DNA from: an uncultured Chryseobacterium sp.
GTDB taxonomy: Bacteria > Bacteroidota > Bacteroidia > Flavobacteriales_F > PHOS-HE28
DNA: 28,400 nucleotides
Reading direction: 5' to 3'
NCBI GenBank assembly: GCA_964517015.1
Contig: CAZFAW010000002.1
Location: 1-28,400, forward strand
A program made the position numbers and the translations under genes. The number at the start of each line of letters is the position of its first letter. Within the stretch, counting starts at the first letter, position 1. Of the stretch, positions 8,455 through 28,400 are shown piece by piece. The notes beneath the pieces are model-generated. The model did no database searches. It had not been told where the DNA came from and saw only the letters and a program-made list of their open reading frames with translations.

Positions 8455-8512
8455 GGACGTGCAGAACCCCGGGAACGCCGTCCGGACGCAGGATCCCTCC
8501 ACCATCCGGCGT

Positions 8513-9193
8513 TCATGGGAGGGCGGCCGGCGAGCGCCGCTTCACCGCTTCCCAGACCCTGTTGCCCGGGAGCGGCACCCGTTCGCGCACGCTGAGCCCG
8601 GCTGCGGTGAGGCCGTCGCGCACGGCCTGGCCCTGTGCCCTGCCCGCTTCGTCCAACGCCATGGTGTTCACCAGCAGCAAGCCGCCCACGGAGAGCCGTG
8701 CGTGCAGGTGGCCACAGGTCGCGGGTGCGGAGAGCTGTTCGGGAACACGGTCGTCGTGGAAAAGGTCCACCAGGATCAGGTCGAAATGGTGGGGCAGCGT
8801 GGCGATCGTGTCGAAGGCATCGGCCGTGATCACGTCCAGGTGCGGGATGCGGGCCAGGCCGAAGCGATTCAAGGCCAGGTGCACCATTGCGGGATCATCG
8901 TCCACGGCGGTGATCGGTGCGGCAAGACCGAGGTCGGTCCGCAACAACTGCACGATCCCCCCACCTCCAAGCCCCAGCACCAGCACGCGCTCCACGTGGC
9001 GCTCGCCCACGCGGGTCATGCGCAAGGTGCGGCGCCACACCTCCTGCAGGCTGCCATGGCTCTGGTTGGCGTGGGCGCTGTCGATCACCAACCGGCCGTT
9101 CTGCCATGCCAGGTCCAGCGGGCCGTGCCGTCCGGCGATCCGCGCCACACGAACGGGCCAGACGTAGCTGAGCAAGCGGGGCAGGAGGGACAT
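8513..9193 (-). CDS. Spermidine-synthase-like SAM-dependent methyltransferase-fold protein
   Basis: From ATG 9193 (MSLLPRLLSYVWP): SAM-binding motif RVLVLGLGGGG, then ITAVDDDPAMV, VITADAF and FDLILVDLF. The track ORF start at 10279 is an antisense extension. Confidence 0.8.
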   Translation of the reverse strand: MSLLPRLLSYVWPVRVARIAGRHGPLDLAWQNGRLVIDSAHANQSHGSLQEVWRRTLRMTRVGERHVERVLVLGLGGGGIVQLLRTDLGLAAPITAVDDDPAMVHLALNRFGLARIPHLDVITADAFDTIATLPHHFDLILVDLFHDDRVPEQLSAPATCGHLHARLSVGGLLLVNTMALDEAGRAQGQAVRDGLTAAGLSVRERVPLPGNRVWEAVKRRSPAALP

Positions 9194-9249
9194 GGGACGA
9201 AGATCGTGCGGAGGATGGGGCGGCGAAGGAAGTCGCGCGGGCAGCGCCC

Positions 9250-9257
9250 TACTTTCG
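9250..9257 (+). promoter_or_regulatory. Putative -7 element (TACTTTCG) for the membrane cyclase; a divergent GATCTTCG motif at 9198-9205 (-) lies 4 nt before ATG 9193
   Basis: Recurrent octamer, 11 nt before ATG 9269. Confidence 0.5.
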
Positions 9258-9268
9258 CGGCCCCTTCC

Positions 9269-10315
9269 ATGGCCCTTACCTCGGTGACCCGGTACAAGCT
9301 GCGCAAGCTGCTGAAGTACGCCCTGGTCACGGGCCTCGTGGCGGCGGTCTTCACGCTCTTCAGCGGCGAACCGTTCCGCTGGTACCACCTGGCCTGGTTG
9401 CTGCTGGGCTTGTGGACGGGCGTGCTGGAGGAGTTCCTTTTCGGCCGCGGGTTCCGTTCGCTGGCCATCCCCTTGCAGTTCCTGGGCAAGGCCATGCTGG
9501 TGAACGCCTTCAGCATCGGCATGGTCGCACTGGCCTTCGCCTTCAACGGCGAACGGCTGCTGCCCTACCTGGGCGAGGGCAACACGGTAATGGCCGATGT
9601 GTTCGTGCAGGCCGCCTTCTACCGCCTGATCATGCGCGTGGTGGTGGTCACGACCATCGCGATCCTGATCGTGCAGATCGAGGAATTGACCGGCCGCCGC
9701 ATGTTCCTCGGCTTCCTGCTGGGCCGCTACGAGACGCCCATGGCCAGCGATCGCGTGGTGATGACCATGGACCTGGTGGGCAGCACCGGCCTGGCCGAAC
9801 GCCTGGGCGACCTGCGTTACTTCCGCTTCCTGAACCGCACCTACTCGCTCATGACCGATGCGGTGCTGCACAACGAGGCCGACATCCACAAATACATCGG
9901 CGACGAGGTGATCTTCACCTGGACCATGCGCAGCGGTACGCGCCACCTGAACTGCCTGGACCTCTTCTTCGACATCCAGGAGCGCATCGCCGTGCACGCC
10001 AACGACCTGCAACGCGAGTTCGGCGCCGTGCCGCGATACCGCGCCGCGGTGCATGGTGGCACGGTGATCACCGCGCGGATCGGCCACATCAAGCGGGCGA
10101 TCGACCTGAGCGGCGACCTGATGAACAGCGTGAGCCGCATGCTGGGACTCTGCAAGCAGCTCGATGCGGGCCTGCTGGCGAGCAGCGAACTGCTGGAGCG
10201 CATGCCCGGGGCCGCCGAACGCTTCGACATCGGTCCGGAGCACACCCTGCCGGTGAAAGGGCGCCGCCGGGAGGTGCATGTTCGCACCGTTGCGCGCCGA
10301 TTAAAAGTGGCATGA
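9269..10315 (+). CDS. Membrane-anchored class III adenylate/guanylate cyclase (multi-TM N-terminus)
   Basis: About four hydrophobic helices, then class III motifs MDLVGSTGLAERLG, KYIGDEV, RAAVHGG, DLSGDLMNSVSRM and VKGR. Confidence 0.85.
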   Translation: MALTSVTRYKLRKLLKYALVTGLVAAVFTLFSGEPFRWYHLAWLLLGLWTGVLEEFLFGRGFRSLAIPLQFLGKAMLVNAFSIGMVALAFAFNGERLLPYLGEGNTVMADVFVQAAFYRLIMRVVVVTTIAILIVQIEELTGRRMFLGFLLGRYETPMASDRVVMTMDLVGSTGLAERLGDLRYFRFLNRTYSLMTDAVLHNEADIHKYIGDEVIFTWTMRSGTRHLNCLDLFFDIQERIAVHANDLQREFGAVPRYRAAVHGGTVITARIGHIKRAIDLSGDLMNSVSRMLGLCKQLDAGLLASSELLERMPGAAERFDIGPEHTLPVKGRRREVHVRTVARRLKVA

Positions 10316-14741: not shown

Positions 14742-16127
14742 TCAGTGCACCTTCACCACGCTGCCTTGTGCCAGCACTTGCGTGCCATCGTCCGTGAACA
14801 ACCGAACCAGGTAAAGGCCATCGGGTACCGCCGAGAGGTCCAGGTCCGTGCCCCGGTGGTGCAACCACGTTGCCGCCAAGGCACCCTGTCCGTCCATCAG
14901 TTCCACGCGGCATCCGTTCAGCGCGGCCAGGTGCCCCACGGTGAGGTGACCGGTGCAGGGCACGGGCCAGGCCCGGAGTTCGGGGATCGTGGTGCTTTCG
15001 GCGACGGCGTTCTGCGAGGCATCGGTGAAAACGTCGACGGTCTCCGGCATGTCCGTCACGAAATCATAGCCGCCCACGAAAAAGGCCTGGTTGCCGCTGG
15101 TGGTGGCCAGGAAGTTCACCCGCGCGTAGCTCATGGTGGTCGAACTCCACGCATCCGCCCCGGCATCGTGGATGTCCACTACGGCCGAAGCAGCGGTGTA
15201 GTACCAATCGGTGAGGAACCCCGAGGGCCCGCCGCCAGCGAAGAGCGCGTAATTCCCGACCGAAGTGGCCTGGATGCCGTAGCGTGCAGCGCTCAGGTCG
15301 GCCGTGCTCCAGGTGTCCGTCGTAGTATCGTACACATCCACCAGCGTGGTCGCGGTCTCATCGGCCAACTGGCCGCCGGCGAAGAACACCTTGGTTCCCG
15401 CTGCGGTGCCGCCACCGTAGAACGCGCGCGCAGCGGACAGCGTGGCCTGGGTCCAAGTGTTCGTGGAGGCATCGTAGATGTCCACACGATCGCTCACCGC
15501 GCCGTTGCCTTTGTACCCCCCGGCGAAATAGGCCTTGGTGCCCAGCACGGCGCTGGCCATGCCACCGCGCGCCTCGGAGAGCGTGGCCGTGCTCCAGGTG
15601 CCGCTTCCCACATCGTAGATATCGACCACGGAGGAAGGGGTGCCGATCAGCGGCGCACCGTCCTCGAAGTCCATGCCTCCGGCGAAGAGGATCTTGCTCC
15701 CCACACCCACCGCTGAAAGTTCCACACGGGGCGCGGACAAGGCGGCCGTTCCTTCCAAGCTGGCGGTGGCCAGGTCCTGTATCTCCACCGTGGCCGACTC
15801 CACCAGCGTGTTGAAGTTGATGCCGCCGCCGCAGAGCATCTTGCCGTCGGCTACGGCGCACGCCACCTTGCCCCGCTCTTCCGTGAGGAACAAGGGGTCG
15901 AGGTTCCATTCGTCCAAGAGCCGGTCGTAGACCTGGATGGTGGTGGTGTAAGCGTAAGAGGCGTCGTATCCTCCGGCCACATAGACCTTGCTGAAGTCGC
16001 TTCCGCCGCCGTGCTGGCATTGCCCATCGGGCAGGGTCACGGTGCTCCATTGTGCATGGGCCGATCGGTCGGGCAATGCGGTGGAACAGAGGATCGCCAG
16101 TGCGGCTGGGAGCGTGCGAGGGGTCAT
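14742..16127 (-). CDS. Kelch-repeat beta-propeller protein with T9SS type-A sorting domain
   Basis: Signal peptide ending AHAQ. Seven Kelch-like blades (KVYVAGG, KMLCGGG, KILFAGG, KAYFAGG, KVFFAGG, YALFAGG, QAFFVGG; W(S/T)xAxLSxAR). CTD AWPVP...LDLSAVPDGLYLVRL...VVK. Confidence 0.85.
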   Translation of the reverse strand: MTPRTLPAALAILCSTALPDRSAHAQWSTVTLPDGQCQHGGGSDFSKVYVAGGYDASYAYTTTIQVYDRLLDEWNLDPLFLTEERGKVACAVADGKMLCGGGINFNTLVESATVEIQDLATASLEGTAALSAPRVELSAVGVGSKILFAGGMDFEDGAPLIGTPSSVVDIYDVGSGTWSTATLSEARGGMASAVLGTKAYFAGGYKGNGAVSDRVDIYDASTNTWTQATLSAARAFYGGGTAAGTKVFFAGGQLADETATTLVDVYDTTTDTWSTADLSAARYGIQATSVGNYALFAGGGPSGFLTDWYYTAASAVVDIHDAGADAWSSTTMSYARVNFLATTSGNQAFFVGGYDFVTDMPETVDVFTDASQNAVAESTTIPELRAWPVPCTGHLTVGHLAALNGCRVELMDGQGALAATWLHHRGTDLDLSAVPDGLYLVRLFTDDGTQVLAQGSVVKVH

Positions 16128-16182
16128 GATCGTTCGGGGGTACTTGGGCGGGCAAAGTGGCCCTGGCGCCAAGTTCATGAAA

Positions 16183-16198
16183 TACCCGCTTCGTGGTA
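16183..16198 (-). promoter_or_regulatory. Palindromic operator box A (TACCACGAAGCGGGTA on - strand) upstream of the Kelch gene
   Basis: TACC-N8-GGTA, followed by TTTC at the -33 position; CCACTTTG (16153-16160) begins 22 nt after the box. Confidence 0.6.
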
Positions 16199-16206
16199 GG
16201 CGGCCT

Positions 16207-16222
16207 TACCACCAACGGGGCA
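16207..16222 (+). promoter_or_regulatory. Operator box B (TACCACCAACGGGGCA) upstream of the histidine kinase gene
   Basis: 13/16 identical to box C. GACCTTCG (16246-16253) begins 23 nt after it and lies 4 nt before ATG 16258. Confidence 0.55.
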
Positions 16223-16257
16223 TTGCCTGTTCCGGGCCGGTCATGGACCTTCGCGGC

Positions 16258-18042
16258 ATGCAGCGCTTCATACGACCTCGTGGATGCGTGCTGATGCTCC
16301 TGCTGTGTGCATGCCTTCCGGGCATGGCTCAACGCGTGGAGGAAGCCCGTCGGTTGATCCGGCAAGGCGCTGCCGAACAGGCGATCGTACTGCTGGACCC
16401 GGAGATCGCCGCGCGGGAACAGGACGGCGATACTTCGGGAATCGTCCGTGCCCTCGTGGTCCGGGCTCGTGCAGCGTACGACCTGGGCCGGTCGCCAGCG
16501 GCATTGTACGATCTGCAACGCTGCATCGCATGGGGTGGCGCTGTGGGCGCGTGGAACGAAGTGGGCGATGCCTGGACATTGAAGGGCGTGATCGCGCAGG
16601 AGAACAGCGGCATGGACAGTGCACGCAGCGCCTACGAGCGGGCCATCGCGGCCCATCTGAAGGCCGGAGACACGTCGGCCTGTGCACTTGTGTACGACAA
16701 CATGGGCCAGTTCAACCTGAACAACGGGGACATCCGCGGTGCAATGGCCTGGAGCGAGAAGGCGCTCGCCTGCCTGAAGGACACCGCATGGCCCGACCAT
16801 TACCGCACTGCGGCGCTCATCGAGAGTTCGCTGTGCAACTACCACACGTGGTCCGGGCAGGGTGAGCAAGGCGTGCAGCACGGCGAACGATCGGTGGAAC
16901 TGGCGGGGCGGAGCGGCGAGGTCTATGCCATCGTCCATACAGGCACCCAACTCGCAGGGGCGTACCTGGCGATCGGCAAGGTGTCGCCTGCACTGAAACT
17001 GCTGCTACGGTCCGATTCGCTCGCGCGCGCACATGCCTTCCCGGCGATCAAGCACCGCGACATCGCCGAACTGCTGTCCTCGGCCTATGAGGCGCTCGGG
17101 GATCCCGCGCGCGCATTGTACTACTACAGGCAGCGCGCGGCCTACAACGACAGTGCGCGAAGCCTGTCCACAAGGCGCACGATCGAAGCCATGGAACGCC
17201 GGCAACTGTTGGTGGCCGACAGCCTGCGCTACCAGGGGCGGCTGCGGGAACAAGCGGCCCGGCACCTTGCGGCGATCGCCACGCAGCGCTGGATCACCGC
17301 AGGCGCCTTGGCGGTGGGTGTGCTCGTATTGGTCATCGCCTTGCTGTACCGTGATCGCGACCGCCGTACGAAGCGCGCGAACGCCTTGATCCTCCAACAA
17401 CAGGAACGACTGGTGCGCAGCGAGCGTGCACGCCAGGCCGAAGAGCTTCGCACACGCATCGCTCGCGACATCCACGACGAGATCGGCGGCGAACTCACCA
17501 AGATCACCCTGCTGGGGAGCAAGGCGCGCCGGGAATGGAGCGAAGGATCGCCGGGGATCGAAGGCTCACTGGACCGCATTCGCGACCTGTCCAGGAGGGT
17601 GGGGGCCGCGCTCAGCGACATCGTGTGGGCCGTGGATCCCGACCGCGATACCGTGCAGGGATTGGTGGAGCATGCACGGGGCATGGTGGAGACCCTGTTG
17701 GAAGATGCACCCGTACTGGCGGACATCCGGTTCGCGCACCAGGATGGCGATCGTTCCATCGACCCCGCCGTGCGCCGCGACATCTTCATGGTGCTCAAGG
17801 AGGCGCTGAACAACACGCTCAAGCATGCAAAGGCCACACGGGTGCAGGTGCTGTTCGAAACCGATGCGCTCACCTACCACCTGCAAGTGCGGGACGATGG
17901 GCTAGGGTTCGCCGAAGGCACTTCCCGGGGGAACGGGTTGAGGAACATCCGTGCACGGGTGGAGCGGTTGCATGCCCGGTTCGAACTGTCTTCCGCTCCA
18001 GGAGCGGGCACGACCCTTGAACTGCGCGGTACATTCCGTTGA
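16258..18042 (+). CDS. TPR-sensor membrane histidine kinase, HisKA_3 (NarX/UhpB-like) type
   Basis: Signal peptide ending GMAQ; TPR-like helices; TM WITAGALAVGVLVLVIALLY; H-box RIARDIHDEIG; EALNNTLKHA; DDGLGF; GNGLRNI; GAGT. Start 16258 (alternative 16243). Confidence 0.9.
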   Translation: MQRFIRPRGCVLMLLLCACLPGMAQRVEEARRLIRQGAAEQAIVLLDPEIAAREQDGDTSGIVRALVVRARAAYDLGRSPAALYDLQRCIAWGGAVGAWNEVGDAWTLKGVIAQENSGMDSARSAYERAIAAHLKAGDTSACALVYDNMGQFNLNNGDIRGAMAWSEKALACLKDTAWPDHYRTAALIESSLCNYHTWSGQGEQGVQHGERSVELAGRSGEVYAIVHTGTQLAGAYLAIGKVSPALKLLLRSDSLARAHAFPAIKHRDIAELLSSAYEALGDPARALYYYRQRAAYNDSARSLSTRRTIEAMERRQLLVADSLRYQGRLREQAARHLAAIATQRWITAGALAVGVLVLVIALLYRDRDRRTKRANALILQQQERLVRSERARQAEELRTRIARDIHDEIGGELTKITLLGSKARREWSEGSPGIEGSLDRIRDLSRRVGAALSDIVWAVDPDRDTVQGLVEHARGMVETLLEDAPVLADIRFAHQDGDRSIDPAVRRDIFMVLKEALNNTLKHAKATRVQVLFETDALTYHLQVRDDGLGFAEGTSRGNGLRNIRARVERLHARFELSSAPGAGTTLELRGTFR

Positions 18043-18078
18043 ACCCGCAGCAGGGCGGCGTTCGGTAGATTGGCACCC

Positions 18079-18720
18079 ATGACCGATGGTCCGATCCGGG
18101 TGGCGATCGTGGAGGATGATGCGGAGCTTCGGGAGCTCCTGCGCGACGAAGTGGCCCACGCCGGGGGCATGCAGGTGGTGAAGTCATTCGCCAATGGCGA
18201 TCAGTTCCTCGCCGCCCACCGGGATCTTCAGGCGCACGTGGTGCTCATGGACATCAACATGCCGGGTACGGACGGCATTGCCTGCATCCAGGAAGCGAAG
18301 CCTGCGCTGCCGTCCACGCAATTCCTCGTGCTTACCGTGTTCGAGAACCCCGCGTACATCTTCCGGGCGCTTTGTGCGGGGGCCACGGGGTACCTGGTGA
18401 AGAACAGTGCTGCGGAGGGCATCGCCGAGGCGATCCGTGCGATCCACGCGGGCGGTTCCCCCATGTCCGCCACCATCGCGCGCTTGGTGGTCAGTTCCTT
18501 CCAGGGCCAGGTACAACAGCGCATCAACGATCAACGGCTCACCGAACGAGAGAAGGAGGTGCTGGACCAACTGGCGCAAGGCCTGCTCTACAAGGAGATC
18601 GCCGCAAAGGCCGGCATCAGCATCGAAACGGTGCGCAAGCACGCCCGGCATATCTACGAGAAGCTGCAGGTGAACTCGCGCGTCGAAGCCATTCGCAAGG
18701 CCTACCCGCGCACGCCATGA
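18079..18720 (+). CDS. NarL/FixJ (LuxR-type HTH) response regulator
   Basis: REC domain VAIVEDD, VVLMDINMPGTDG, LTV, GATGYLVK; HTH LTEREKEVLDQLAQGLLYKEIA...ISIETVRKHARHIYEKLQV. Confidence 0.95.
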   Translation: MTDGPIRVAIVEDDAELRELLRDEVAHAGGMQVVKSFANGDQFLAAHRDLQAHVVLMDINMPGTDGIACIQEAKPALPSTQFLVLTVFENPAYIFRALCAGATGYLVKNSAAEGIAEAIRAIHAGGSPMSATIARLVVSSFQGQVQQRINDQRLTEREKEVLDQLAQGLLYKEIAAKAGISIETVRKHARHIYEKLQVNSRVEAIRKAYPRTP

Positions 18721-18731
18721 TCGGGCAGGGC

Positions 18732-18747
18732 TACCACCATAGGGGTA
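18732..18747 (+). promoter_or_regulatory. Operator box C (TACCACCATAGGGGTA) upstream of the TPR-cyclase pair
   Basis: TACC-N8-GGTA, followed by TTTC. CAGCTTTG (18771-18778) begins 23 nt after the box and lies 4 nt before ATG 18783. Confidence 0.65.
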
Positions 18748-18782
18748 TTTCACGCGTGCGGCAGGCCGACCAGCTTTGGCAC

Positions 18783-21176
18783 ATGGCCGGTCGTACCGCC
18801 TTTCTCCTTCTCGTGCTCTTGTGCAGCGGCCTTATCCATGCGCAGCAACAGCGCCTCGATAGCATCGAGCGTGCGTTGAAGGAGCACACTGGCGATGGAC
18901 CAGCACGGGCGCGTACCCTGGCCGAGCTCGGCCGCACCTGCTCCACGATCTCCGCGCCGCGCGCCCTCAAGGCCCTGCACGAGGCCCGCGACCTGGCCAT
19001 CCGGAACGGCGATGATCGCTTGCGCACGCGCGTGCATGTGTACGAACGCGACCTGTGGGCCCTGATGATGGAGTACGCCAAGGCCGATTCCGTCGGGCGA
19101 CTGGCCGCGACCGAGGCGGCACAGCTCCGCGATCCGCTCCTGCAGGGCATGTCGGAGGTCTACTTCTTCAGCGACGAGAACGCGTTCGACAGCCTGCAAC
19201 TTGCAACGGCTCGCGATCGGATCGACCGTGGCCTGCGCCGCATTCGCGCGACCAACGACCGCGCCGCGCTCGCCGATGCCCTGTTCATCAAGAGCGGTAC
19301 GCAAGTCCTGAACAAGGATGTTGGCACGCTCTGGCAGGCACGCGACCTGTTCGCCTCCCTGGGCGATAGCTGCGGTGTGGGCAAGTGTCTTACCTACAGT
19401 TGGATGTACGAACCCGTGGCGTCGGACCCGAACGCGGTACGCGCGAATTTCCTTCGTGCCATGCGCCTGTTCCGTGAGCAGGGGAACATCTGCTGGCAGG
19501 CCTATCAATCGGTCAATTCGGTCTGGGCCGCATCCGACAGTGCCGACTATGCCCATGCACTGTTGAACGCGCAAGAGGCTTTCGATCATGCGGAACGGTT
19601 CGGTGCACCCGAATTGTCCGCGTATTGCGGAAATGCACTAGCGGAGATGAACTTCACGCTGAATGCCGATCAAGAGGTATTGGTGCACGCGCGGAAGGTG
19701 CTGGAGCGTTCGAAGGAGCGCACCGTTCGCGGCTATGCGCACATCATGAAAGCCCGCTTGTACCTGCGTTTGGACCAGCCGGACAGCACCATCGCCGAGA
19801 CGGGACGCTGGTTGCAGGAGAACCCGGAGCGCGGTGACCACATGAACTACGGAGAGATCCAATGCGCCCTGGGTGAAGCACTACGGTTGAAAGGGGAAAC
19901 GGTCCGTGCGTTGGAGTGCCTGCGCACCTCGTACGACATCCATCACCGCTATCCGCACAATTACTGGGAGGAATCACTGGCCGCGTTGGCCTTGGGCAAG
20001 CTCTATGCGCATGCTGACGACGCTCAACTGCGGACATTGCGGATCGCTCCTGCTCAGGCGGAAGTGCAGGCCTTGCATTACTTGGAACGCGTGCTGGAGC
20101 TCGGTGCCGCTCACGGCATCCTCAAGGAACAGGAGCAGGCATTGCACGAACTGAGCCTGCTGTACGAAAGACGCGGGGACCAGGGCACGGCCCTGCGCTA
20201 CCTGCAACGCCATGCGGTGATGCGCGACAGTGTGCTCGACGAGGACAAGACGAAGTCAATCGCCTTGTTGCAGGTCCGGTACGAAACGGAGAAGAAAGAG
20301 CAGGAGATCGCGCTCCTGGGCAAGGACAAGGAGGTGCAGGCCAAGGAGATCCAGAAGCAGAAGCTCGTGCGCAACGGGTTCATCGGCGGCTTCGCGCTGG
20401 TGGCCTTGTTCGCCGGGGTGTTCCTCGTGCAGCGCAATCGCATCGGCAAGGAGAAGAAGCGCAGCGAGGAGTTGCTCCTGAACATCCTGCCCGAAGAGGT
20501 GGCCGAAGAACTCAAGGCCAAGGGCGAAGCGGAGGCCCGGCACATCGACGAGGTCACCGTGCTCTTCACGGACTTCAAAGGCTTCACGGCCATGAGCGAG
20601 GTGCTTTCGCCGAAGGCCCTCGTGCGCGACTTGCACGAGTGCTTCAGCGCCTTCGATGCCATTTGCGAGCGGTACGGCCTGGAGAAGATCAAGACCATCG
20701 GCGATGCCTACATGGCTGCTGGCGGTCTTCCCGTGCCCAACACCACGCACGCGACCGATGCGGTGGGCGCGGCGCTGGCCATGCGCGACTTCATCGCCGA
20801 AGGCAAGGCCCGGAAGATCGCCGCCGGGCTGCCCTACTTCGAAGTACGCATCGGGATACACACCGGCCCGGTCGTCGCCGGCATCGTGGGCGAAAAGAAG
20901 TTCCAGTACGACATCTGGGGCGATACGGTGAACACCGCCTCTCGCATGGAGAGCAGCGGTGAAGTGGGCAAGGTGAACATCAGCGAGGCGACGTATGCGC
21001 TGCTGAAAGAGACCATGAAGGAAAAGGACGTGAAGGATGTAGTGGATGGGGACAACGCGCAACACGCAACCCGTCAACCCGCAACTGGGCCTGCATTCCT
21101 CTTCACCCCCCGCGGGAAAGTGCAGGCAAAAGGCAAAGGCGAAATGGAGATGTACTTCGTGGAGCAACGGGCATGA
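18783..21176 (+). CDS. TPR-sensor class III adenylate cyclase (cyclase A)
   Basis: Signal peptide ending IHAQ; TPR helices; TM; [61 protein letters not shown]. The Lys in KIKTIGD and Asp in YDIWG are the established ATP-specifying residues. Confidence 0.9.
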   Translation: MAGRTAFLLLVLLCSGLIHAQQQRLDSIERALKEHTGDGPARARTLAELGRTCSTISAPRALKALHEARDLAIRNGDDRLRTRVHVYERDLWALMMEYAKADSVGRLAATEAAQLRDPLLQGMSEVYFFSDENAFDSLQLATARDRIDRGLRRIRATNDRAALADALFIKSGTQVLNKDVGTLWQARDLFASLGDSCGVGKCLTYSWMYEPVASDPNAVRANFLRAMRLFREQGNICWQAYQSVNSVWAASDSADYAHALLNAQEAFDHAERFGAPELSAYCGNALAEMNFTLNADQEVLVHARKVLERSKERTVRGYAHIMKARLYLRLDQPDSTIAETGRWLQENPERGDHMNYGEIQCALGEALRLKGETVRALECLRTSYDIHHRYPHNYWEESLAALALGKLYAHADDAQLRTLRIAPAQAEVQALHYLERVLELGAAHGILKEQEQALHELSLLYERRGDQGTALRYLQRHAVMRDSVLDEDKTKSIALLQVRYETEKKEQEIALLGKDKEVQAKEIQKQKLVRNGFIGGFALVALFAGVFLVQRNRIGKEKKRSEELLLNILPEEVAEELKAKGEAEARHIDEVTVLFTDFKGFTAMSEVLSPKALVRDLHECFSAFDAICERYGLEKIKTIGDAYMAAGGLPVPNTTHATDAVGAALAMRDFIAEGKARKIAAGLPYFEVRIGIHTGPVVAGIVGEKKFQYDIWGDTVNTASRMESSGEVGKVNISEATYALLKETMKEKDVKDVVDGDNAQHATRQPATGPAFLFTPRGKVQAKGKGEMEMYFVEQRA
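21015..21089 (+). repeat. In-frame 75-nt insertion of short tandem repeats inside cyclase A
   Basis: Purine-rich ATGAAGGAA/GTGAAGGAT/GTAGTGGAT units, then CGCAACA-CGCAACC-CGTCAACC-CGCAACT (21058-21086). 25 aa longer than cyclase C at this loop. Confidence 0.7.
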
Positions 21177-23557
21177 AGCGCACGGTCTTCATTCTACTGG
21201 CGCTGTTGTTCAGCATGCAGCTATCGGCACAACGCGCGCGCATGCAGGAGTTGGAGCACGCCCTTCAGCAGGAACCGAGGGAGAACGCCAAGCGCCTACG
21301 CACGCTCGCGGCTCTGGCGAAAACGTGCTCCACCATCGATCCCGGACGCGCCTTCCAACTTTCACAGCAGGCCGTAGCGCTCGGACAGCAGCTGAAGGAT
21401 GACGTCGGACTCACCGAAGCCTGGGTGAGCGAACGCTGGGCGCGTTACTACCTGGGCCTCTACGGCTCTTGCGACTCGATCGAAGACCTGGCCATGGCCG
21501 CGGCAGCACGCAGCGGCGATCCCCGCTCCTGGGCCCTCACCCACGGGGTGCCGCACTACGTGACCTTCGATCGGAAGGGTGTACGGCATGCCTGGATGGA
21601 ACGGTCCCTGCACATCGCCGATTCCATCGGTGATGGCGCACTGGCGGCGGAGATCCTGTTCTGGAACGGGATCAAGAACTACATCACCGAAACGCCGGAA
21701 CTCGTGGAACAGGCCCTTATCCGCTACCGGGCGATCGGCGACTCCAGCGGCGTGGCCATGTGCCTGCACAGCTTGGCGAGCTTCGAACCCTACGTTTCCG
21801 ACCCGGTGCGCAAACAGTGGTGCATCGATCACGCCACTGCCCTTTTCGATCTGGATGGGAACGTGATCTGGTCGCTCTGGCTGCACACCGATCACAGTGC
21901 CGAGGCCACCAAGCGAACAGACTATGTGACTGCTGTGCGCGAAGGCCTCGTGGCCTTGGACAAGGCGGAACAACTGGGAATGGACGTGGAGGTCATGTAT
22001 GCCCAGGACGCGCTGGCCAACTCGTACCGGGCCATGGGCGATCTGCGTACCGCGTTGAGCTACCACTTGCGCTCGCTGGACCATGCGACCGATCTCCAGA
22101 ACCATCTCGCCACGTTGAACCAGGTCGGACGTGTCTACGGCATGCTCGGAATGGCCGATAGCGCGTTCCACTACCTGGAGCGGTCCATGGCCAAGGTGCA
22201 CAAGGATCCGGACAGGAAGGTGCCCGAGGCTGAGGTCCCTTGGAGATACAATGAGGCGGAGGGGTTCCTCGCCGAAGTGCTCGCCTCACAGGGCCGCGAA
22301 GTGGAGGCCGCTTCGCACTTCCGTTCCGCGCTGGAAGCGCACCGTCGCGAGAGTGCGTTCCAAGAGGAGGCGTGGGCCGCGCTCGGGTATGGCCGTCTGC
22401 TCGCACACGCATCCGATGGGTTGTTGGTCGCGCTCGGACTTTCTGAAGAACAGGTGCGCAGGAAAGCGCGGCAGGAACTGGAACGGGCACTGGAACTGGG
22501 AAAGCAAATGCGTATGCTCAAGGAACAGGAGGACGCGTTGTTCGAACTCGCCCATCTATGCGAGATCCAGGGCGATCTTGCCAAGGCCTTCGAATACCAG
22601 AAGCTGCACGCCGCCATGAAGGACAGCGTGCTCAGCGCCGACAAAGTGAAGGCGGTAGCGCGGCTGGAGAGCGCCCGTGAGGAAGAGAAGCGCACCACGG
22701 CATTGCGCGCGGCGCAGGAGAAGAAGGATGTGGCCGCGCAGAAGGACCTCAACGAACAGCATACCCTGCGCAATTGGCTGGTGGGCGGTGTGGTGGTGGT
22801 GGCTTTGTTCGCGTTGGTCTTTTTCCTTCAACGGAACCGCACACGTAAAGAGAAAGCACGCAGCGATGAGATCCTGCACAACGTGCTGCCGGAGGAGGTG
22901 GCGCGAGAGATCAAGGCCACGGGCACGGCGAAAAGCCGCGAGTTCGATCAGGTGAGCGTGCTGTTCACGGACTTCAAGGGCTTCACCGAACTGAGCGCAA
23001 GCCTCCCGCGACAGGAATTGATGGCCGAGATCGATGCCTGCTTCAAGGTCTTCGATGGGATCAGTCATCGCCACGGCGTGGAGAAGATCAAGACCATCGG
23101 CGATGCCTACATGGCGGCGGCCGGCCTGAAGGGCGAAGCGCAGGATGCCGCGGTGAACGCCGTGCTTGCAGCGCTGGAGATGCAGGCCTTCATTGAAGCA
23201 CGGCACACCGAACGGAGCGCGCAGGGACTTCCTGCCTTCCGCATGCGCGCGGGCATCCACACCGGCCCCGTGGTGGCCGGCATCGTGGGCGAAAAGAAGT
23301 TCCAGTACGACATCTGGGGCGATACCGTGAACACGGCCAGCCGCATGGAGAGCAGCGGTGAAGTAGGCCGGGTGAACATCAGCGAGGCGACGTACCGCCT
23401 GGTGAATGGTGAAGAGCGAATGGCGAATGGAGCAGGAGGGAACTCCCATGCACCAACTCCCGTTCACCGTTCACCTGCATTCGTCTTCACCCCGCGCGGT
23501 AAGGTGCAGGCGAAGGGGAAGGGGGAGATGGAGATGTACTTCGTGGAGCGAGCGTGA
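21173..23557 (+). CDS. TPR-sensor class III adenylate cyclase (cyclase B), paralog of cyclase A
   Basis: ATGA overlap with cyclase A; signal peptide ending LSAQ; N-terminus aligns with A (RTLAxLxxTCSTI); TM; same catalytic motifs. Confidence 0.9.
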   Translation: MKRTVFILLALLFSMQLSAQRARMQELEHALQQEPRENAKRLRTLAALAKTCSTIDPGRAFQLSQQAVALGQQLKDDVGLTEAWVSERWARYYLGLYGSCDSIEDLAMAAAARSGDPRSWALTHGVPHYVTFDRKGVRHAWMERSLHIADSIGDGALAAEILFWNGIKNYITETPELVEQALIRYRAIGDSSGVAMCLHSLASFEPYVSDPVRKQWCIDHATALFDLDGNVIWSLWLHTDHSAEATKRTDYVTAVREGLVALDKAEQLGMDVEVMYAQDALANSYRAMGDLRTALSYHLRSLDHATDLQNHLATLNQVGRVYGMLGMADSAFHYLERSMAKVHKDPDRKVPEAEVPWRYNEAEGFLAEVLASQGREVEAASHFRSALEAHRRESAFQEEAWAALGYGRLLAHASDGLLVALGLSEEQVRRKARQELERALELGKQMRMLKEQEDALFELAHLCEIQGDLAKAFEYQKLHAAMKDSVLSADKVKAVARLESAREEEKRTTALRAAQEKKDVAAQKDLNEQHTLRNWLVGGVVVVALFALVFFLQRNRTRKEKARSDEILHNVLPEEVAREIKATGTAKSREFDQVSVLFTDFKGFTELSASLPRQELMAEIDACFKVFDGISHRHGVEKIKTIGDAYMAAAGLKGEAQDAAVNAVLAALEMQAFIEARHTERSAQGLPAFRMRAGIHTGPVVAGIVGEKKFQYDIWGDTVNTASRMESSGEVGRVNISEATYRLVNGEERMANGAGGNSHAPTPVHRSPAFVFTPRGKVQAKGKGEMEMYFVERA
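23401..23475. repeat. Heptamer-repeat palindromic element in frame inside cyclase B
   Basis: Left arm GGTGAAT-GGTGAAG-AGCGAAT-GGCGAAT. Right arm CCGTTCACCGTTCACC (reverse complement GGTGAACGGTGAACGG). Net 20 aa longer than cyclase C. Confidence 0.7.
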
Positions 23558-23609
23558 AACGGATCCCGGATCCAAGCAATGCGGCCAGGAGTTCAGCAAC
23601 ACAATGCGT

Positions 23610-24512
23610 TCACTCCACGATCAACCGGCCTGCGGCACCCCGGCCTCGCGCATCCACGGCGGATACCGCATAGATGCCCGGGGCGAGAGACCGCAGGTCG
23701 ACATCCACTTGCGTGTCGGCGGAGATCCCTTCATGCACGATCCGGCCGCTCGCATCGCGCACGATCACCGTATGGGGGCCGGTGAACGGCAGCGCGATGT
23801 GCACCATGTCGGCCGCAGGCACAGGCCACATACCAAGGGCAGGAGCAGGAGTGATCGTCATCCCGGTCGCCACCTCCACTTGCCACAGGTCCAGTCCGAA
23901 GCCGGGCATGTAGGAGCCGATGGCATCGAGCATGTTGCTCGCCTGGTAGAAGGTGTAGGGGCCACCGTTCGTCTGGAACATCACCACGTTGGTGATCGTG
24001 CCCCATGGTGCAGTGATCTCGCCCGAGGCCACATAGTCCACCACATCGGTGTAGGGGTTCCCGGCGATGGTGTAGTCATCGGTGAAGGTGTTGCCCAATG
24101 AGAACGGATAGGTGCAATAGGTGCGCCCCCCGACGAACTCCTCGCTGTTGGCACCCAGCAGTTCGGCGAAAGACGAGGTGACATGGAAGTGTCTCCATTC
24201 CCCGGGCGGTGTCCCGCCGTTGTCTTCGGCGCAGATCGTGGTGGTGGGATAGATGGCCGCGTAGGGGCTGTCGCCCGGTGCGTGGTAGATCACCGTCCGT
24301 GTGATGCCGAAGGGTGTCACGCCCATGGCGTTCCAGGTGTTACCCGTGCCGGAAGTGGCCAGGCCGCTGGCACTGCCATCCTGGTGATAGCTCCGGTTCT
24401 CCACCGTGCCGATGGCCGGGATGCTGGTGGCTTCCGTCAGCGTTTGCGCTGAACAGAATGAAGCAAGAGGCAGTGTGCTGATGAACAGTGATCGGCGTAA
24501 TGTGGTTCTCAT
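23610..24512 (-). CDS. T9SS type-A sorting domain-containing secreted protein of unknown function
   Basis: Signal peptide ending CSAQ; Thr/Gly-rich beta region; CTD MWPVPAADMVHI...RDASGRIV...VDLRSLAPGIYAV...RLIVE. Confidence 0.8.
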   Translation of the reverse strand: MRTTLRRSLFISTLPLASFCSAQTLTEATSIPAIGTVENRSYHQDGSASGLATSGTGNTWNAMGVTPFGITRTVIYHAPGDSPYAAIYPTTTICAEDNGGTPPGEWRHFHVTSSFAELLGANSEEFVGGRTYCTYPFSLGNTFTDDYTIAGNPYTDVVDYVASGEITAPWGTITNVVMFQTNGGPYTFYQASNMLDAIGSYMPGFGLDLWQVEVATGMTITPAPALGMWPVPAADMVHIALPFTGPHTVIVRDASGRIVHEGISADTQVDVDLRSLAPGIYAVSAVDARGRGAAGRLIVE

Positions 24513-24573
24513 GGGTACGGTAGGTCCAGTTGGTTGACCGTGGCAAAGCTGGAAGACCGGTCCTCATCCACAC

Positions 24574-24589
24574 TACGGGTCTCACCGTA
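24574..24589 (-). promoter_or_regulatory. Operator box D (TACGGTGAGACCCGTA on - strand) upstream of the second T9SS cargo
   Basis: Perfect TACGG-N6-CCGTA palindrome. CAGCTTTG (24544-24551), identical to the box C -7 motif, begins 22 nt after it. Confidence 0.55.
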
Positions 24590-24606
24590 TTCAGCCCGCG
24601 ATCCAC

Positions 24607-24732
24607 ATGATTTTGTGCATTGTGGGTGTGAAGAAGTTCGCCTACGACATCTGGGGCGATACGGTGAACACGGCCAGCCGCATGGAGAGCAGCGACGCGA
24701 CACAGCCCGGAGGTCCCGCTGCGGGCCGTTGA
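24607..24732 (+). pseudogene. Orphan fragment of a class III cyclase catalytic core (41-codon ORF)
   Basis: 24619-24693 translates as [25 protein letters not shown], nearly identical to cyclases A and B. Flanks are unrelated and the ORF stops at 24732. Confidence 0.75.
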
Positions 24733-24809: not shown

Positions 24810-25148
24810 TTACGCCTTGCGCACGTAGATGCTCTTCAAACCCATGGCGCCGAACCCGTCCACCCGGCAGTCGATGTCGTGATCGCCTTCCACCAGCTTG
24901 ATGTTCTTCACCTTGGTGCCCGCTTTCACGGGTTTGGGCATGCCTTTCACGGGCAGGTCCTTGATCACCACCACGTCATCGCCGTCCTTCAGCACATTGC
25001 CGTTGGCGTCCTTGATCACGGGGCCGGCCGCCGCCGCTTCCACTTCCTCGGGGTTCCATTCGTGCCCGCATTCCGCGCACATCCACGAGGTGCCGGTGGG
25101 GTAGGTGATCGCCGAGCGGCATTCCGGACAGGGTTTCTCGTTATCCAT
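24810..25148 (-). CDS. phnA: PhnA/YjdM zinc-ribbon protein
   Basis: CPEC...CAECGHEW zinc ribbon; KDANGNVLKDGDDVVVIKDLPVKG...KAGTKVKNIKL...DIDCRVDGFGAMGLKS. TACTTTCG (25155-25162, -) lies 6 nt before the ATG. Confidence 0.9.
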   Translation of the reverse strand: MDNEKPCPECRSAITYPTGTSWMCAECGHEWNPEEVEAAAAGPVIKDANGNVLKDGDDVVVIKDLPVKGMPKPVKAGTKVKNIKLVEGDHDIDCRVDGFGAMGLKSIYVRKA

Positions 25149-25227
25149 GGACGGCGAAAGTACCCGGATGGGTCCATGGCGGGCCGCCTGGCTCCACGTT
25201 CGGCTTTCCCTTCCCATCTTTAGCGCA

Positions 25228-28200
25228 ATGGCGCGCGTGCTCCCCCTCGTGGCCGGCTGGTTTTTCGGACTCGTCCTTGCGCCCGCGGCGCTACGTGCAC
25301 AGTCGCCGGAACGATCCCTTTTGATCGACACCATCGACCTGGCCTTCTCCAGGATCACCATCGATCAAGGGCTCTCGCAGGGCATGGTGAGCGCCATCGC
25401 ACAGGACCTTCATGGCTTCCTGTGGTTCGGCACCAAGGATGGCCTGAACCGGTACGACGGTTACCGGTTCACCGTGTTCCGGCACGATGCCTCCGATACC
25501 ACCAGCCTGCGCGAGAGCAACATCTCCGGCCTGCAGTGCGACCGCTACGGCCGCTTGTGGGTGGGAACGGCCACCGGGCTCGACCTCTTCAACGAGCGCA
25601 CGGAACGGTTCATCCACCTGCCCATCCGTGGGCCCGAAGGCGATTGGGGCAGTGTGGTGCATATCGTGCTCGACGACAATGGCGACCTGTGGGTGAGCAC
25701 CACCTCCGCCCTGGTGAAGCTCACGTTCGCCGAGCCCTTCACCGGCTACGACGTGCCCGCCTTCACCACCACCTGGTTCGGCCATGGCTACGCCACCGTG
25801 AGCCGCACACGCGACGGGCAGCTCTGGGGGAACTTGAACGAGATCACCTTCCGCATCCGCCCTCGGCACGCCATGCCGGACGTGGTGGATACCATCGGTC
25901 GGATCGAATACTCCGAGGCCAATATGCAGTTCGGTGCGCTCGCGGTGATGGAGGATACCCTGCGCGACATCGTCTACGGGATCTACCAGAACGGGATCGT
26001 GAAGGTGGATCCCCGCACCGGAGCGATCCAGTACCTCTTGAAGGACACGGAGAAGCTGCGCTGGCTGCAAGCGCTCCATCCGGTGGTGGACCGCAAAGGC
26101 TTGCTGTGGTTCTCCACCTTCCAGGGCCTGTACCGGTTCGATCCGGAGAAGCGCCAACTCACGTTCGTGCGCGCATCGGACCCGGACATGCGCCAGGTTT
26201 TGGCTTCCTTGAAGTGGACGCACCTGGATCGGAACGGCACCTTCTGGATCGGCACGTCGGGCTACGGGTTGATCAAGTACGATCCGCGGAACGAACGGTT
26301 CAACAACTGGCAGAGCGCGAGCATCCGCGCGCTGGCCGCGACCAGGGAAGGTCGGGTGCTGGCTTCGTTCTACGACCGGTTCATCACGGTGCTCGACCCC
26401 GTGCGGCGCACCACAGCCTTCGAGGTCCGGAACGCGCATCGGCAATGGCCCGCGCTCAAGGGCCAGCTGGCCACGGAGTACGCGGACATGACGGTGCAGG
26501 ACCGCGATGGTCGCTTGTGGTCCTTCGTGGCCTACGGCACACTGACCTGTTACGATCCCGCGACCGGTGCGTTGAGCATCCTGAAGCCCGAGATCGCTCC
26601 GGGCGTACGCGACGGCGGGTTCCACTTCCCGCTGCACATCGGCGCGGACAGCGCGCTGTGGTGCGGAGGGGACCGTGCCCTCTGGCGCGTGGACACGCGC
26701 ACGCACGCCTGCACGCCCTACCCGTGGCCGGTGCCGGTGGTGAACAATCCCTATCCCTTCACCACCGCCCTGTACCAGGGCGCCGATGGCGTGGTGTGGG
26801 CGGGCACCGTGAACGGCCTGCTGCGCATGGATGCCGCGACGAAGACCTGGAAGACCTACGCGCACGATCCGAAGGACAGCACCTCGCTCTCCGCGCCCAC
26901 GATCTTCTCCATCTGCCCGGACCCGGCGGACGGCCTGAACGTGCTGTGGATCGGCACCAACGGCGGCGGCTTGAACCGGTTGGATGTGCGCAGCGGCACC
27001 TTCACCCGCTTCACCACGCACGAAGGCCTGCCCAACGATGTGGTGTACGGCGTGCTGAGCGATGATCAGGGCTTCCTCTGGATGAGCACCAACAAGGGCA
27101 TCGCCCGCTTCGATCCGCGCACCCGCACCTTCCGCAACTTCAACGCCGGTGATGGGTTGCAGAGCGATGAGTTCAATCGCCATGCGTATTGCAAGGACGG
27201 CCGTGGCTGGCTCTACTTCGGCGGGGTGAACGGCCTGAACTACTTCGATCCCCGCGCATTGCAACAGGACAGCACGCCCGTGGAGGTGCTGATCACCGGC
27301 ATCAAGCTCATCAACAAGACCGTGGAGTTCGGCCAGCCCGGATCACCGCTCCAACTGCCGGTGCATCTGAGCCGGGGCATGACCATTCCGTACAGTGCGA
27401 ACATGGTCACCTTCAGCTTCGCCACCATGGAATTCGCCGCCCCGGAGCTGCACGAGTACCGCTACAAGCTCGAAGGCTTCGACGACGATTGGATCGATGC
27501 GGGTGCCGCCAACAGCGCCGTCTATACCAACCTGGACCCGGGCACCTACACCTTCCACGTGCGCGGCCGCAACCGCGATGGGATCTGGGATACGAAGGGT
27601 GCATCGTTCAGCCTTACCGTGCTGCCCCCGTGGTGGCGCACGTGGTGGTTCTACACGCTTTGCGGGATCGTGATCATCGGAGGCACCTTGCTGTACATCC
27701 GCAGCTTGCGCGTGCAGCAGGTGGTGCTGGAGCGTACCGTGGCCGACCGCACCCGCGAACTGAGGCACGAAAAGGACCGCAGCGAGGAACTTCTGAAGAA
27801 CATCCTGCCTGAGAACGTGGCCAACGAACTGAAGGTGCGCGGCACCGCGGAGGCGCGCAGCTTCGACCAGGTCACCGTGCTCTTCAGCGACTTCCGCGAT
27901 TTCACGCGCATCACCGAACAACTCACGGCCGCCGAACTGGTGGAGGAGCTCAACGTCTGTTTCAACGCCTTCGACCGCATCATGGAGAAGTACGGCGTGG
28001 AGAAGATCAAGACCATCGGCGATGCGTACATGGCCGCCGGCGGCGTGCCCGATCCCAGCGGTGGCATGCCCGTGGCCGTGGTGCTCGCCGGCCTGGAGAT
28101 GCAGCACATCCTGCGCGAACGGCAGGCCGAACGCAGGGCCCTCGGCAAACCCACCTTCGAGATGCGCGTGGGCATCCACACCGGGCCCGTGGTGGCGGGG

Positions 28201-28400
28201 ATCGTGGGACGCCGCAAGTTCCAGTACGACATCTGGGGCGATACGGTGAACGTGGCCAGCCGCATGGAAAGCACGGGCGAACCGGGCGAGGTGAACATCA
28301 GCGGGGCCACCTACGAACTCGTCAAGAACGAACCGGGCCTGCTCTTCACCCCGCGTGGCCGCGTGAGCGCGAAAGGCAAGGGCGAACTGGAGATGTACTA
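25228..28400 (+). CDS. Two-component-regulator propeller + Y_Y_Y sensor fused to class III adenylate cyclase (cyclase C; runs off the right edge)
   Basis: Manual translation from ATG 25228: signal peptide ending LRAQ; propeller repeats (GLSQGMVSAIAQDLHGFLWFGTKDGLNRYDG, GLPNDVVYGVLSDDQGFLWMST, DGLQSDEFN); Y_Y_Y (YRYKLEGFDDDW...YTNLDPGTYTFHV); TM; [36 protein letters not shown]. Frame checked at several points. Confidence 0.9.
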   Translation, partial: MARVLPLVAGWFFGLVLAPAALRAQSPERSLLIDTIDLAFSRITIDQGLSQGMVSAIAQDLHGFLWFGTKDGLNRYDGYRFTVFRHDASDTTSLRESNISGLQCDRYGRLWVGTATGLDLFNERTERFIHLPIRGPEGDWGSVVHIVLDDNGDLWVSTTSALVKLTFAEPFTGYDVPAFTTTWFGHGYATVSRTRDGQLWGNLNEITFRIRPRHAMPDVVDTIGRIEYSEANMQFGALAVMEDTLRDIVYGIYQNGIVKVDPRTGAIQYLLKDTEKLRWLQALHPVVDRKGLLWFSTFQGLYRFDPEKRQLTFVRASDPDMRQVLASLKWTHLDRNGTFWIGTSGYGLIKYDPRNERFNNWQSASIRALAATREGRVLASFYDRFITVLDPVRRTTAFEVRNAHRQWPALKGQLATEYADMTVQDRDGRLWSFVAYGTLTCYDPATGALSILKPEIAPGVRDGGFHFPLHIGADSALWCGGDRALWRVDTRTHACTPYPWPVPVVNNPYPFTTALYQGADGVVWAGTVNGLLRMDAATKTWKTYAHDPKDSTSLSAPTIFSICPDPADGLNVLWIGTNGGGLNRLDVRSGTFTRFTTHEGLPNDVVYGVLSDDQGFLWMSTNKGIARFDPRTRTFRNFNAGDGLQSDEFNRHAYCKDGRGWLYFGGVNGLNYFDPRALQQDSTPVEVLITGIKLINKTVEFGQPGSPLQLPVHLSRGMTIPYSANMVTFSFATMEFAAPELHEYRYKLEGFDDDWIDAGAANSAVYTNLDPGTYTFHVRGRNRDGIWDTKGASFSLTVLPPWWRTWWFYTLCGIVIIGGTLLYIRSLRVQQVVLERTVADRTRELRHEKDRSEELLKNILPENVANELKVRGTAEARSFDQVTVLFSDFRDFTRITEQLTAAELVEELNVCFNAFDRIMEKYGVEKIKTIGDAYMAAGGVPDPSGGMPVAVVLAGLEMQHILRERQAERRALGKPTFEMRVGIHTGPVVAGIVGRRKFQYDIWGDTVNVASRMESTGEPGEVNISGATYELVKNEPGLLFTPRGRVSAKGKGELEMY

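Follow-up and report, generated by a model that had tools for sequence, protein, structure and literature searches.

A predicted NarL-like operator abutting the promoters of a TPR-sensor two-component system, a Kelch gene, and adenylate cyclases in Bacteroidota

Among described regulatory circuits, the NarX/NarQ-NarL/NarP systems of E. coli are among the closest to the one considered here. Their HisKA_3 kinases sense through a nitrate-binding four-helix bundle, their regulators consist of a receiver and a GerE domain, and their targets are respiratory genes. NarL prefers inverted heptamers 2 base pairs (bp) apart, as in the co-crystal site TACCCCTAAAGGGGTA (PMC4549865), and it activates napF, yeaR, and ogt1052 from such 7-2-7 sites at -42.5 to -44.5 (PMC4549865, PMC9314961). 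In Gram-positive bacteria, VraSR, LiaSR, and DesKR also use HisKA_3 kinases, with intramembrane sensors for envelope or temperature stress. The operons of these systems are autoregulated via an upstream palindromic operator; their operator sequences and regulons differ from those described below. Within the Bacteroidota, FimS/FimR of P. gingivalis is a two-component system with a tetratricopeptide repeat (TPR) sensor kinase that controls cell-surface proteins. Cyclases are not involved there, and FimR is not known to be a GerE-type regulator. Here, we analyze a locus on a 28,400-nucleotide (nt) stretch of DNA from an uncultured Chryseobacterium sp. (contig CAZFAW010000002.1; hereafter, the window), in which a 16-bp palindrome, which we call the box, stands ahead of a Kelch gene, an operon of a TPR-sensor kinase and a NarL/FixJ-family regulator, and an operon of two adenylate cyclases (Table 1).

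Comparison across lineages shows that boxes A, B, and C are conserved elements with a defined orientation, that they are tied to promoters, and that they accompany the kinase-regulator operon. A sequence-only reading of this DNA had proposed one NarL-like box at four promoters, with spacings of 22, 23, 23, and 22 nt to a -7 motif and with TTTC, TTGC, and TTTC directly after A, B, and C. All of these features are present as described. Furthermore, boxes A, B, and C do form one motif, TACCAC-N4-GGGG(T/C)A, which directly abuts TTG or TTT and is followed 19-20 nt further on by nAnnTT(T/C)G. The fourth, box D, does not belong with them: it mismatches their consensus at 6 of the 12 specified positions, and no TTG comes after it. 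The shared box is asymmetric, with TACCAC distal and GGGG(T/C)A proximal, and in every case it points at the downstream gene. The leading T is absent from all four -7 octamers and the A at position 2 is kept in three of them, in agreement with the earlier remark that these motifs lack the consensus TA start.

Table 1. Coordinates of the boxes, -7-like elements, and genes of the locus within the window.
Feature	Position	Strand	Description
Kelch beta-propeller protein, likely type IX secretion system (T9SS) cargo	14742..16127	-	Divergent from kinase; Kelch_1 E=3e-25
-7-like element, Kelch promoter	16153..16160	-	CCACTTTG, 22 nt past box A
Box A + abutting TTTC	16179..16198 (box 16183-16198, TTTC 16179-16182)	-	TACCACGAAGCGGGTA
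Box B + abutting TTGC (-33-like)	16207..16226 (box 16207-16222)	+	TACCACCAACGGGGCA
-7-like element, kinase-regulator operon	16246..16253	+	GACCTTCG, 23 nt past box B; then 4 nt, ATG 16258
Sensor histidine kinase	16258..18042	+	Signal peptide, ~300 amino acids (aa) of TPR, coiled coil, one membrane helix, HisKA_3, HATPase (Pfam and translation)
NarL/FixJ-family response regulator	18079..18720	+	Receiver domain (Response_reg) and helix-turn-helix (GerE)
Box C + abutting TTTC	18732..18751 (box 18732-18747)	+	TACCACCATAGGGGTA
-7-like element, cyclase operon	18771..18778	+	CAGCTTTG, 23 nt past box C; then 4 nt, ATG 18783
TPR adenylate cyclase A	18783..21176	+	Signal peptide, TPR-like sensor, membrane helix, class III cyclase domain; Guanylate_cyc E=3e-56 (PF00211)
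TPR adenylate cyclase B	21173..23557	+	TPR-like sensor, signal peptide, membrane helix; Guanylate_cyc E=7e-51 (PF00211)
300-aa protein with T9SS-type C-terminal tail (second cargo)	23610..24512	-	Por_Secre_tail; probably outside the regulon
-7-like octamer after box D	24544-24551	-	CAGCTTTG, 22 nt from box D
Box D, separate conserved palindrome upstream of second cargo gene	24574..24589	-	TACGGTGAGACCCGTA, followed by GTGT

The strength of this pattern depends on how much of it is counted. The window contains three matches to bare TAC-N10-GTA where 0.95 would be expected, a count that was reached in 8 of 100 shuffles. The sequence-only reading had rightly cautioned that such hits arise by chance and, because the count is not significant, we dropped it as evidence. 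When the pattern was extended to TACCAC-N4-GGGGTA with at most one mismatch, there were three sites against 0.04 expected in the window. The full composite (box with up to two mismatches, TTK, 23-24 nt, TTYG) again gave three sites in the window, against 0.0025 expected from 400 Markov simulations. Given that the composite was derived from the sites themselves, we relied on conservation among orthologues as the independent test.

Orthologues of the kinase, collected through a protein search and contig look-ups, represented ten lineages with 47-67% protein identity (loci are cited by L number). A GTDB genome scan with the kinase yielded only relatives with 32% identity or less and did not find an orthologous locus. 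The kinase-regulator pair is kept together in the orthologous loci retrieved, and the neighborhood of Kelch, kinase, regulator, and cyclase genes is itself conserved among them. Across the eight tabulated lineages, the kinase promoter aligns as TaCCac-N4-gGGGcA / TTGc / N19 / ACCTTCG / N4 / ATG, with intervening positions and flanks that are not conserved or cannot be aligned. A full box B is found in eight of the ten lineages, the TTG after it is invariant among the kinase lineages, and ACCTTCG is invariant in the eight tabulated lineages and also occurs in L151 and L152, the latter with the complete layout. The check that the sequence-only reading had put forward, footprint conservation in orthologous intergenic regions, came out strongly in favor of boxes A, B, and C, the composite being kept as islands in the ten kinase lineages. 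So did its view of the box as a NarL-like 7-2-7 element that accompanies the operon from lineage to lineage.

The association extends beyond the kinase promoter. Even in lineages with no Kelch or cyclase gene nearby (L021/L022, L025, and L151), the kinase-regulator operon keeps its box. In five lineages (the window, L015, L017/L018, L019/L020, and L152), a divergent Kelch gene is accompanied by a second, inverted box. These paired boxes are 24 bp apart from center to center (27 bp in L017), and on the Kelch side an nnnnTTYG octamer lies at equal distance in L017 (CAGCTTTG), L019 (GAGTTTCG), and L015. Downstream of the regulator gene there is a further box, again with TTK and a -7 element, and in the window and in L019/L020 the gene that it precedes encodes a TPR cyclase. 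In the same position, the box precedes a 1209-aa Kelch protein in L016, a DUF5122 propeller in L023, and an N-terminal fragment without a domain match in L018. The metagenome locus L116, with a regulator that is 67% identical, has two box sites, one of them ahead of a cyclase. A box after the orthologous regulator gene was also seen in the low-G+C loci L107 and L112/L078. In these (L107 2933-3010; L078 168-250; L112 221-236, minus strand), the box is followed by a full TAnnTTTG promoter, and within 150 nt no open reading frame (ORF) of at least 50 aa starts with an ATG. Downstream of the box, L078 and L112 share the stretch CCACACCATTAACCAT, the equivalent of which in L107 is CCACACTATTAACCATT; this stretch may correspond to a small ORF or small RNA.

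The boxes also hold a fixed place relative to the predicted promoters. With the A of the conserved ATG counted as +1, the kinase and cyclase promoters have their octamer at -12 to -5, TTG at -35 to -33, and a predicted box center at -43.5. In F. psychrophilum, the sigma-A -7 box TAnnTTTG likewise sits at -12 to -5 (PMC9723704). The position of TTG, the octamer ending in TT(T/C)G, and the 20-nt gap between them are all like the sigma-A promoters of Bacteroidota (-33 TTTG, -7 TAnnTTTG). There are, however, three differences: the leading T of the -7 element is missing at all three promoters, every kinase promoter has TTCG for TTTG, and a putative regulator site is fused to the -33 element. The earlier description of the box as abutting a Bacteroidota-type -33 TTG upstream of a weak -7 element is supported for A, B, and C, with conserved spacing. 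No sigma-70-type promoters were found between 16000 and 25400.

Because the gap between octamer and ATG is an invariant 4 nt, we predict leaderless mRNAs for the kinase and the cyclases, with transcription starting at 16258 and 18783. For the same reason, namely the conserved distance from promoter to ATG, we place the kinase start at 16258 and not at the called 16243. The latter, which is the public start, would put the conserved -7 element within the gene; the kinase call in L015 (1458) begins upstream of the box itself. In the Kelch gene, the in-frame ATG at 16127 lies 25 nt past the -7 element.

The adjacent regulator is a member of the NarL/FixJ family and not a NarL orthologue. Its receiver domain (PF00072, E=1.4e-20) carries D58 in an LMDIN motif that is invariant in eight orthologues, and its GerE domain (PF00196, E=2.2e-17) aligns to the NarL C-terminal chains 1je8 and 8u3b with E of about 1e-8. 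Its best structural-sequence matches are to the group that includes VraSR, LiaSR, and DesKR; the PDB matches, with E of about 1e-25, are VraR, NarL, and DesR. Seven orthologues share the recognition helix of the regulator, ETVRKHxRHIYEKLQV, nearly unchanged. The same helix is kept in a 45%-identical regulator from an organism with 40% G+C, where the regulator gene is followed by TACCACAAAAGGGGTA-TTG.

The boxes themselves resemble NarL operators. Compared with TACYYMT heptamers separated by a 2-bp gap, boxes A-C are 16 bp long with TAC...G(T/C)A ends, and box C agrees with the NarL co-crystal site at 13 of 16 positions. As the sequence-only reading had pointed out, the right half of box C, TACCCCT, is an exact fit to the NarL heptamer. 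The distal TACCACN departs from TACYYMT at positions 5 and 7, with an A in TACCAC where NarL prefers a pyrimidine. The likeness to the E. coli systems thus includes a HisKA_3 kinase, a receiver-GerE regulator, 16-bp inverted heptamers with TAC...GTA ends, and a predicted position of -43.5 as compared to the activating range of -42.5 to -44.5. The differences are a TPR sensor with a signal peptide, promoters of the Bacteroidota -33/-7 type, and targets that would be a Kelch cargo and adenylate cyclases. If the assignment is correct, NarL-type 7-2-7 recognition may have been kept across phyla. The resemblance to FimS is weak: the FimS model matched TPR parts of the kinase (E=1e-4) and of cyclase A (E=5e-6), far under its 600-bit cutoff.

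Given that linkage, family, site geometry, sequence, and position agree, we consider it likely that a dimer of the adjacent regulator recognizes boxes A, B, and C as its operators, and that the regulator would act as a class-II-like activator of its own system and its neighbors. In the mechanism that we propose, the kinase, whose TPR sensor probably faces the periplasm, would phosphorylate the regulator. The phosphorylated regulator would then bind the 16-bp 7-2-7 sites (distal heptamer TACCACN, proximal T(A/G)CCCCN), each of which abuts the -33 TTG of a presumed sigma-A-type promoter with a weak -7 element (nAnnTTYG, no leading T) and has a predicted center at -43.5. From there it would activate its own operon (positive autoregulation), the divergent Kelch gene, and the two-cyclase operon, with kinase and cyclase transcripts that would begin, leaderless, at the A of ATG. 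We infer from sequence the identity of the binding protein, activation over repression, and the transcription starts. The sequence-only reading had the same regulator driving its own operon, the Kelch gene, the two cyclases, and the second cargo; conserved linkage favors the first three promoters, where binding would be expected, and the second cargo drops out. Its phosphorelay-to-cyclic AMP (cAMP)-to-secretion cassette was not supported in its last step, from cAMP to secretion; the Kelch protein is a cargo and not secretion machinery.

An argument can be made against this interpretation on several grounds. The box is assigned to the regulator through linkage and family resemblance, and in our alignment with NarL, at the three positions that we take to contact bases, the regulator reads R, K, R where NarL has K, V, K. 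It scores 121.7 bits against the NarL equivalog NF007935, for which the cutoff is 250, and falls below every NCBIfam equivalog cutoff. Two of the ten kinase lineages, L023 and L151, keep the promoter-proximal half of box B alone. Among the matches listed from the metagenome scan described below, most box-bearing promoters elsewhere in Bacteroidota have no regulator gene within the flanking DNA analyzed. Finally, leaderless mRNAs are a flavobacterial minority, accounting in F. psychrophilum for 5.5% of 890 coding sequences with a mapped start (PMC9723704).

The last but one of these points bears on another explanation, in which the box is real and is read by a factor encoded elsewhere, either a CRP/FNR-type cAMP receptor, which would create a cAMP feedback loop on the cyclase and kinase promoters, or a paralogous LuxR-type regulator. 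A 16-bp palindrome with its center near -42 to -44 would be typical of class II CRP/FNR sites as well; in addition, cyclases are among the putative targets. Nevertheless, the half-sites match the NarL heptamer and not TGTGA or TTGAT, the window encodes no cNMP-binding (cyclic nucleotide-binding) regulator, and the box goes with the kinase-regulator operon in all ten lineages, whether or not a cyclase is nearby. We therefore regard an unlinked factor as unlikely.

It is also conceivable that the adjacent regulator binds the boxes and represses, for example with an unphosphorylated form that occludes the -33 element, resulting in negative autoregulation. A dimer bound directly against the -33 TTG could block sigma region 4, and NarL does repress at some 7-2-7 sites, such as that of frdA (PMC4549865). 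Yet the frdA site overlaps the transcription start, at -4/+6, unlike the predicted -43.5 here, and NarL sites at -42.5 to -44.5 activate. A sub-consensus -7 element at all target promoters is furthermore what would be expected of activator-dependent promoters. Repression from these boxes seems to us quite improbable, and activation by the adjacent regulator remains the reading that we prefer.

Footprinting and fold controls effectively exclude two further explanations, each of which we hold to be very improbable. One is that the boxes are alike by chance or as a by-product of duplicated paralogous 5' regions with no regulatory role: the bare palindrome count and the similar architecture of kinase and cyclases would allow this, but the composite count does not, ten lineages keep the box as islands in unalignable flanks ahead of unrelated gene types, and 47-67% protein identity speaks against recent transfer of one segment. 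The other is that the palindromes act as RNA, such as a terminator hairpin at box C, which lies 11 nt past the regulator stop codon and is followed by TTT; against this, fold energies are no better than those of shuffles (z = +0.34, -0.67, and -0.76), no terminator-like site was called at any box, the same box occurs in promoter regions between divergent genes, where it has no preceding gene to terminate, and the half-sites are conserved as sequence with no compensatory stem changes across orthologues.

The mechanism itself is an ordinary one, that of an autoregulated NarL-family two-component system with a palindromic operator. What surrounds it appears to be an uncharacterized Bacteroidota family, which combines a TPR sensor, an operator fused to the -33 element, two predicted leaderless target operons, and adenylate cyclases as putative targets. 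We found no description of this system in the literature searched. The known regulator binding sites of environmental Bacteroidota, where promoters are unlike the textbook type, are very few. For such organisms, the locus supplies a predicted operator backed by ten lineages, its placement relative to the -33 and -7 elements, predicted starts at 16258 and 18783, and a candidate regulator. Furthermore, adenylate cyclase genes under putative two-component control would offer a first handle on cAMP signaling in the group.

To look beyond orthologous loci, we scanned metagenomes for the exact pattern. The scan returned at least 120 matches, in which promoters are mixed with many chance matches inside genes, and it was not used for counts. 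Among the matches listed, an intergenic subset lies on Bacteroidota-like contigs of 25-50% G+C, with TTG and a full TAnnTTTG. Here, the box precedes a Kelch protein (L147), a T9SS cargo (L081), TonB-dependent receptors (L049 and L150), a Bac_transf sugar transferase (the L053 group), and a TPR protein (L128). These neighbors make it doubtful that the regulon is self-contained, as the sequence-only reading had supposed, and suggest that the operator and the regulator family may be widespread. Also among the matches listed, L053, L055, L082, L090, L124, L072, and L073 (about 35% G+C) have the exact box, TTG, and TAGCTTTG, in place of which L072 and L073 carry TAGTTTTG. In the L053 group, the box is about 55 nt upstream of the sugar transferase, which hints at polysaccharide synthesis as a possible target in other Bacteroidota. 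Taken further, a phylum-wide circuit might be envisaged in which a periplasmic TPR sensor and a -33-fused NarL-like operator switch on surface genes (for Kelch and other T9SS cargo, TonB receptors, and a sugar transferase) along with TPR adenylate cyclases that share the sensor architecture. We put this forward tentatively and think it less likely than not. If true, a two-component system would set the capacity for cAMP signaling, a messenger that has hardly been studied in the phylum.

The gene set itself, derived from an analysis of G+C at third codon positions (GC3), is consistent with earlier calls. The window has a G+C content of 62-68%, and its closest named relatives are Flavobacteriales metagenome-assembled genomes. 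Domain searches bore out all of the earlier assignments: the Kelch protein, the TPR-HisKA_3 kinase, the NarL/GerE regulator, the two TPR class III cyclases, and the protein with a T9SS tail. The kinase gene, which lies directly upstream of the regulator gene, encodes PF07730 and PF02518 domains. The TIGR04183 sorting tail of the Kelch protein scores 18.1 bits against a cutoff of 23, and its orthologues have Por_Secre_tail in their precomputed matches. The genes for cyclases A and B overlap by 4 nt and for this reason are placed in one operon; full-length B shares 41% identity with A. Both contain KTIGDAYM and YDIWGDTVN, the K and D of which we take to be adenylate-specifying residues. The possibility that kinase and cyclases have one sensor in common was set aside: the architecture is alike, but the sequence similarity is marginal (25%, E=0.009, close to the membrane helix) and does not demonstrate a common ligand.

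Box D and the second cargo gene require a different explanation. The heptamers of box D, TACGGTG and TACGGGT, carry purines at positions that are pyrimidines in boxes A-C and in the NarL heptamer. Its conservation, moreover, is limited to orthologues of its own gene. In L027, which encodes a 66%-identical orthologue of the second cargo, TACGGTGGATACCGTA lies 22 nt from AACATTTG, a distance equal to that in the window; of box D, L026 retains just the right half, and L028-L030 have none. The cargo protein has many orthologues, among which the Por_Secre_tail-type domain appears in precomputed matches, and its own tail scores 22.5 bits for Pfam PF18962 (cutoff 27) and 19.1 for NCBIfam TIGR04183 (cutoff 23). 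No second-cargo orthologue examined adjoins an orthologue of this kinase-regulator pair. We considered box D as a degenerate copy of A-C, an idea that we rejected on account of its sequence and of the unrelated neighborhoods in which orthologues of its gene sit. Most likely, it is a different conserved promoter element that would be read by another regulator. Box D has a half-site of TACGGT in place of TACCAC or TACCCC; the second cargo probably does not fall within the regulon where the sequence-only reading had put it, and because box D is a separate element, the predicted regulon shrinks from four promoters to three.

Several additional observations concern the surroundings of box D. GGATCGCGGG is common to the window (24590-24600, minus strand) and L027 (2055-2071), six to seven nt before the palindrome, from which it follows that the conserved block is larger than the 16-mer of box D. 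In L026 (2087-4856), the second cargo gene has a 67%-identical orthologue that is immediately followed by genes for a TPR-LytS kinase and a LytTR regulator. TPR-sensor two-component systems of differing output families thus adjoin related cargo genes. Box D has as its direct neighbor a 41-codon C-terminal remnant of a class III cyclase (24607-24732, plus strand), situated between phnA and the second cargo gene, which points to an earlier deletion or rearrangement in this cyclase-rich region.

The remainder of the window is indeed rich in cyclases. In addition to the TPR pair and the remnant, there is a weak Guanylate_cyc match (8459-10315) and a third large cyclase (25228-28398), and only the TPR pair has a box. 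The third cyclase, which exceeds 1057 aa and runs past the window end, includes Reg_prop and Y_Y_Y domains; no box was found upstream of it (from 25228) at up to three mismatches, nor in the 78-nt gap between phnA/yjdM and its ATG at 25228. For phnA/yjdM (24810-25150, minus strand), the start is most likely the ATG at 25150, giving about 113 aa, and not the longest-ORF start at 25361. Finally, the 1593-aa product of 3629-8410 (minus strand) combines Ig_7 and PKD with a type B T9SS signal (CHU_C); this large surface adhesin has no relation to the operator.

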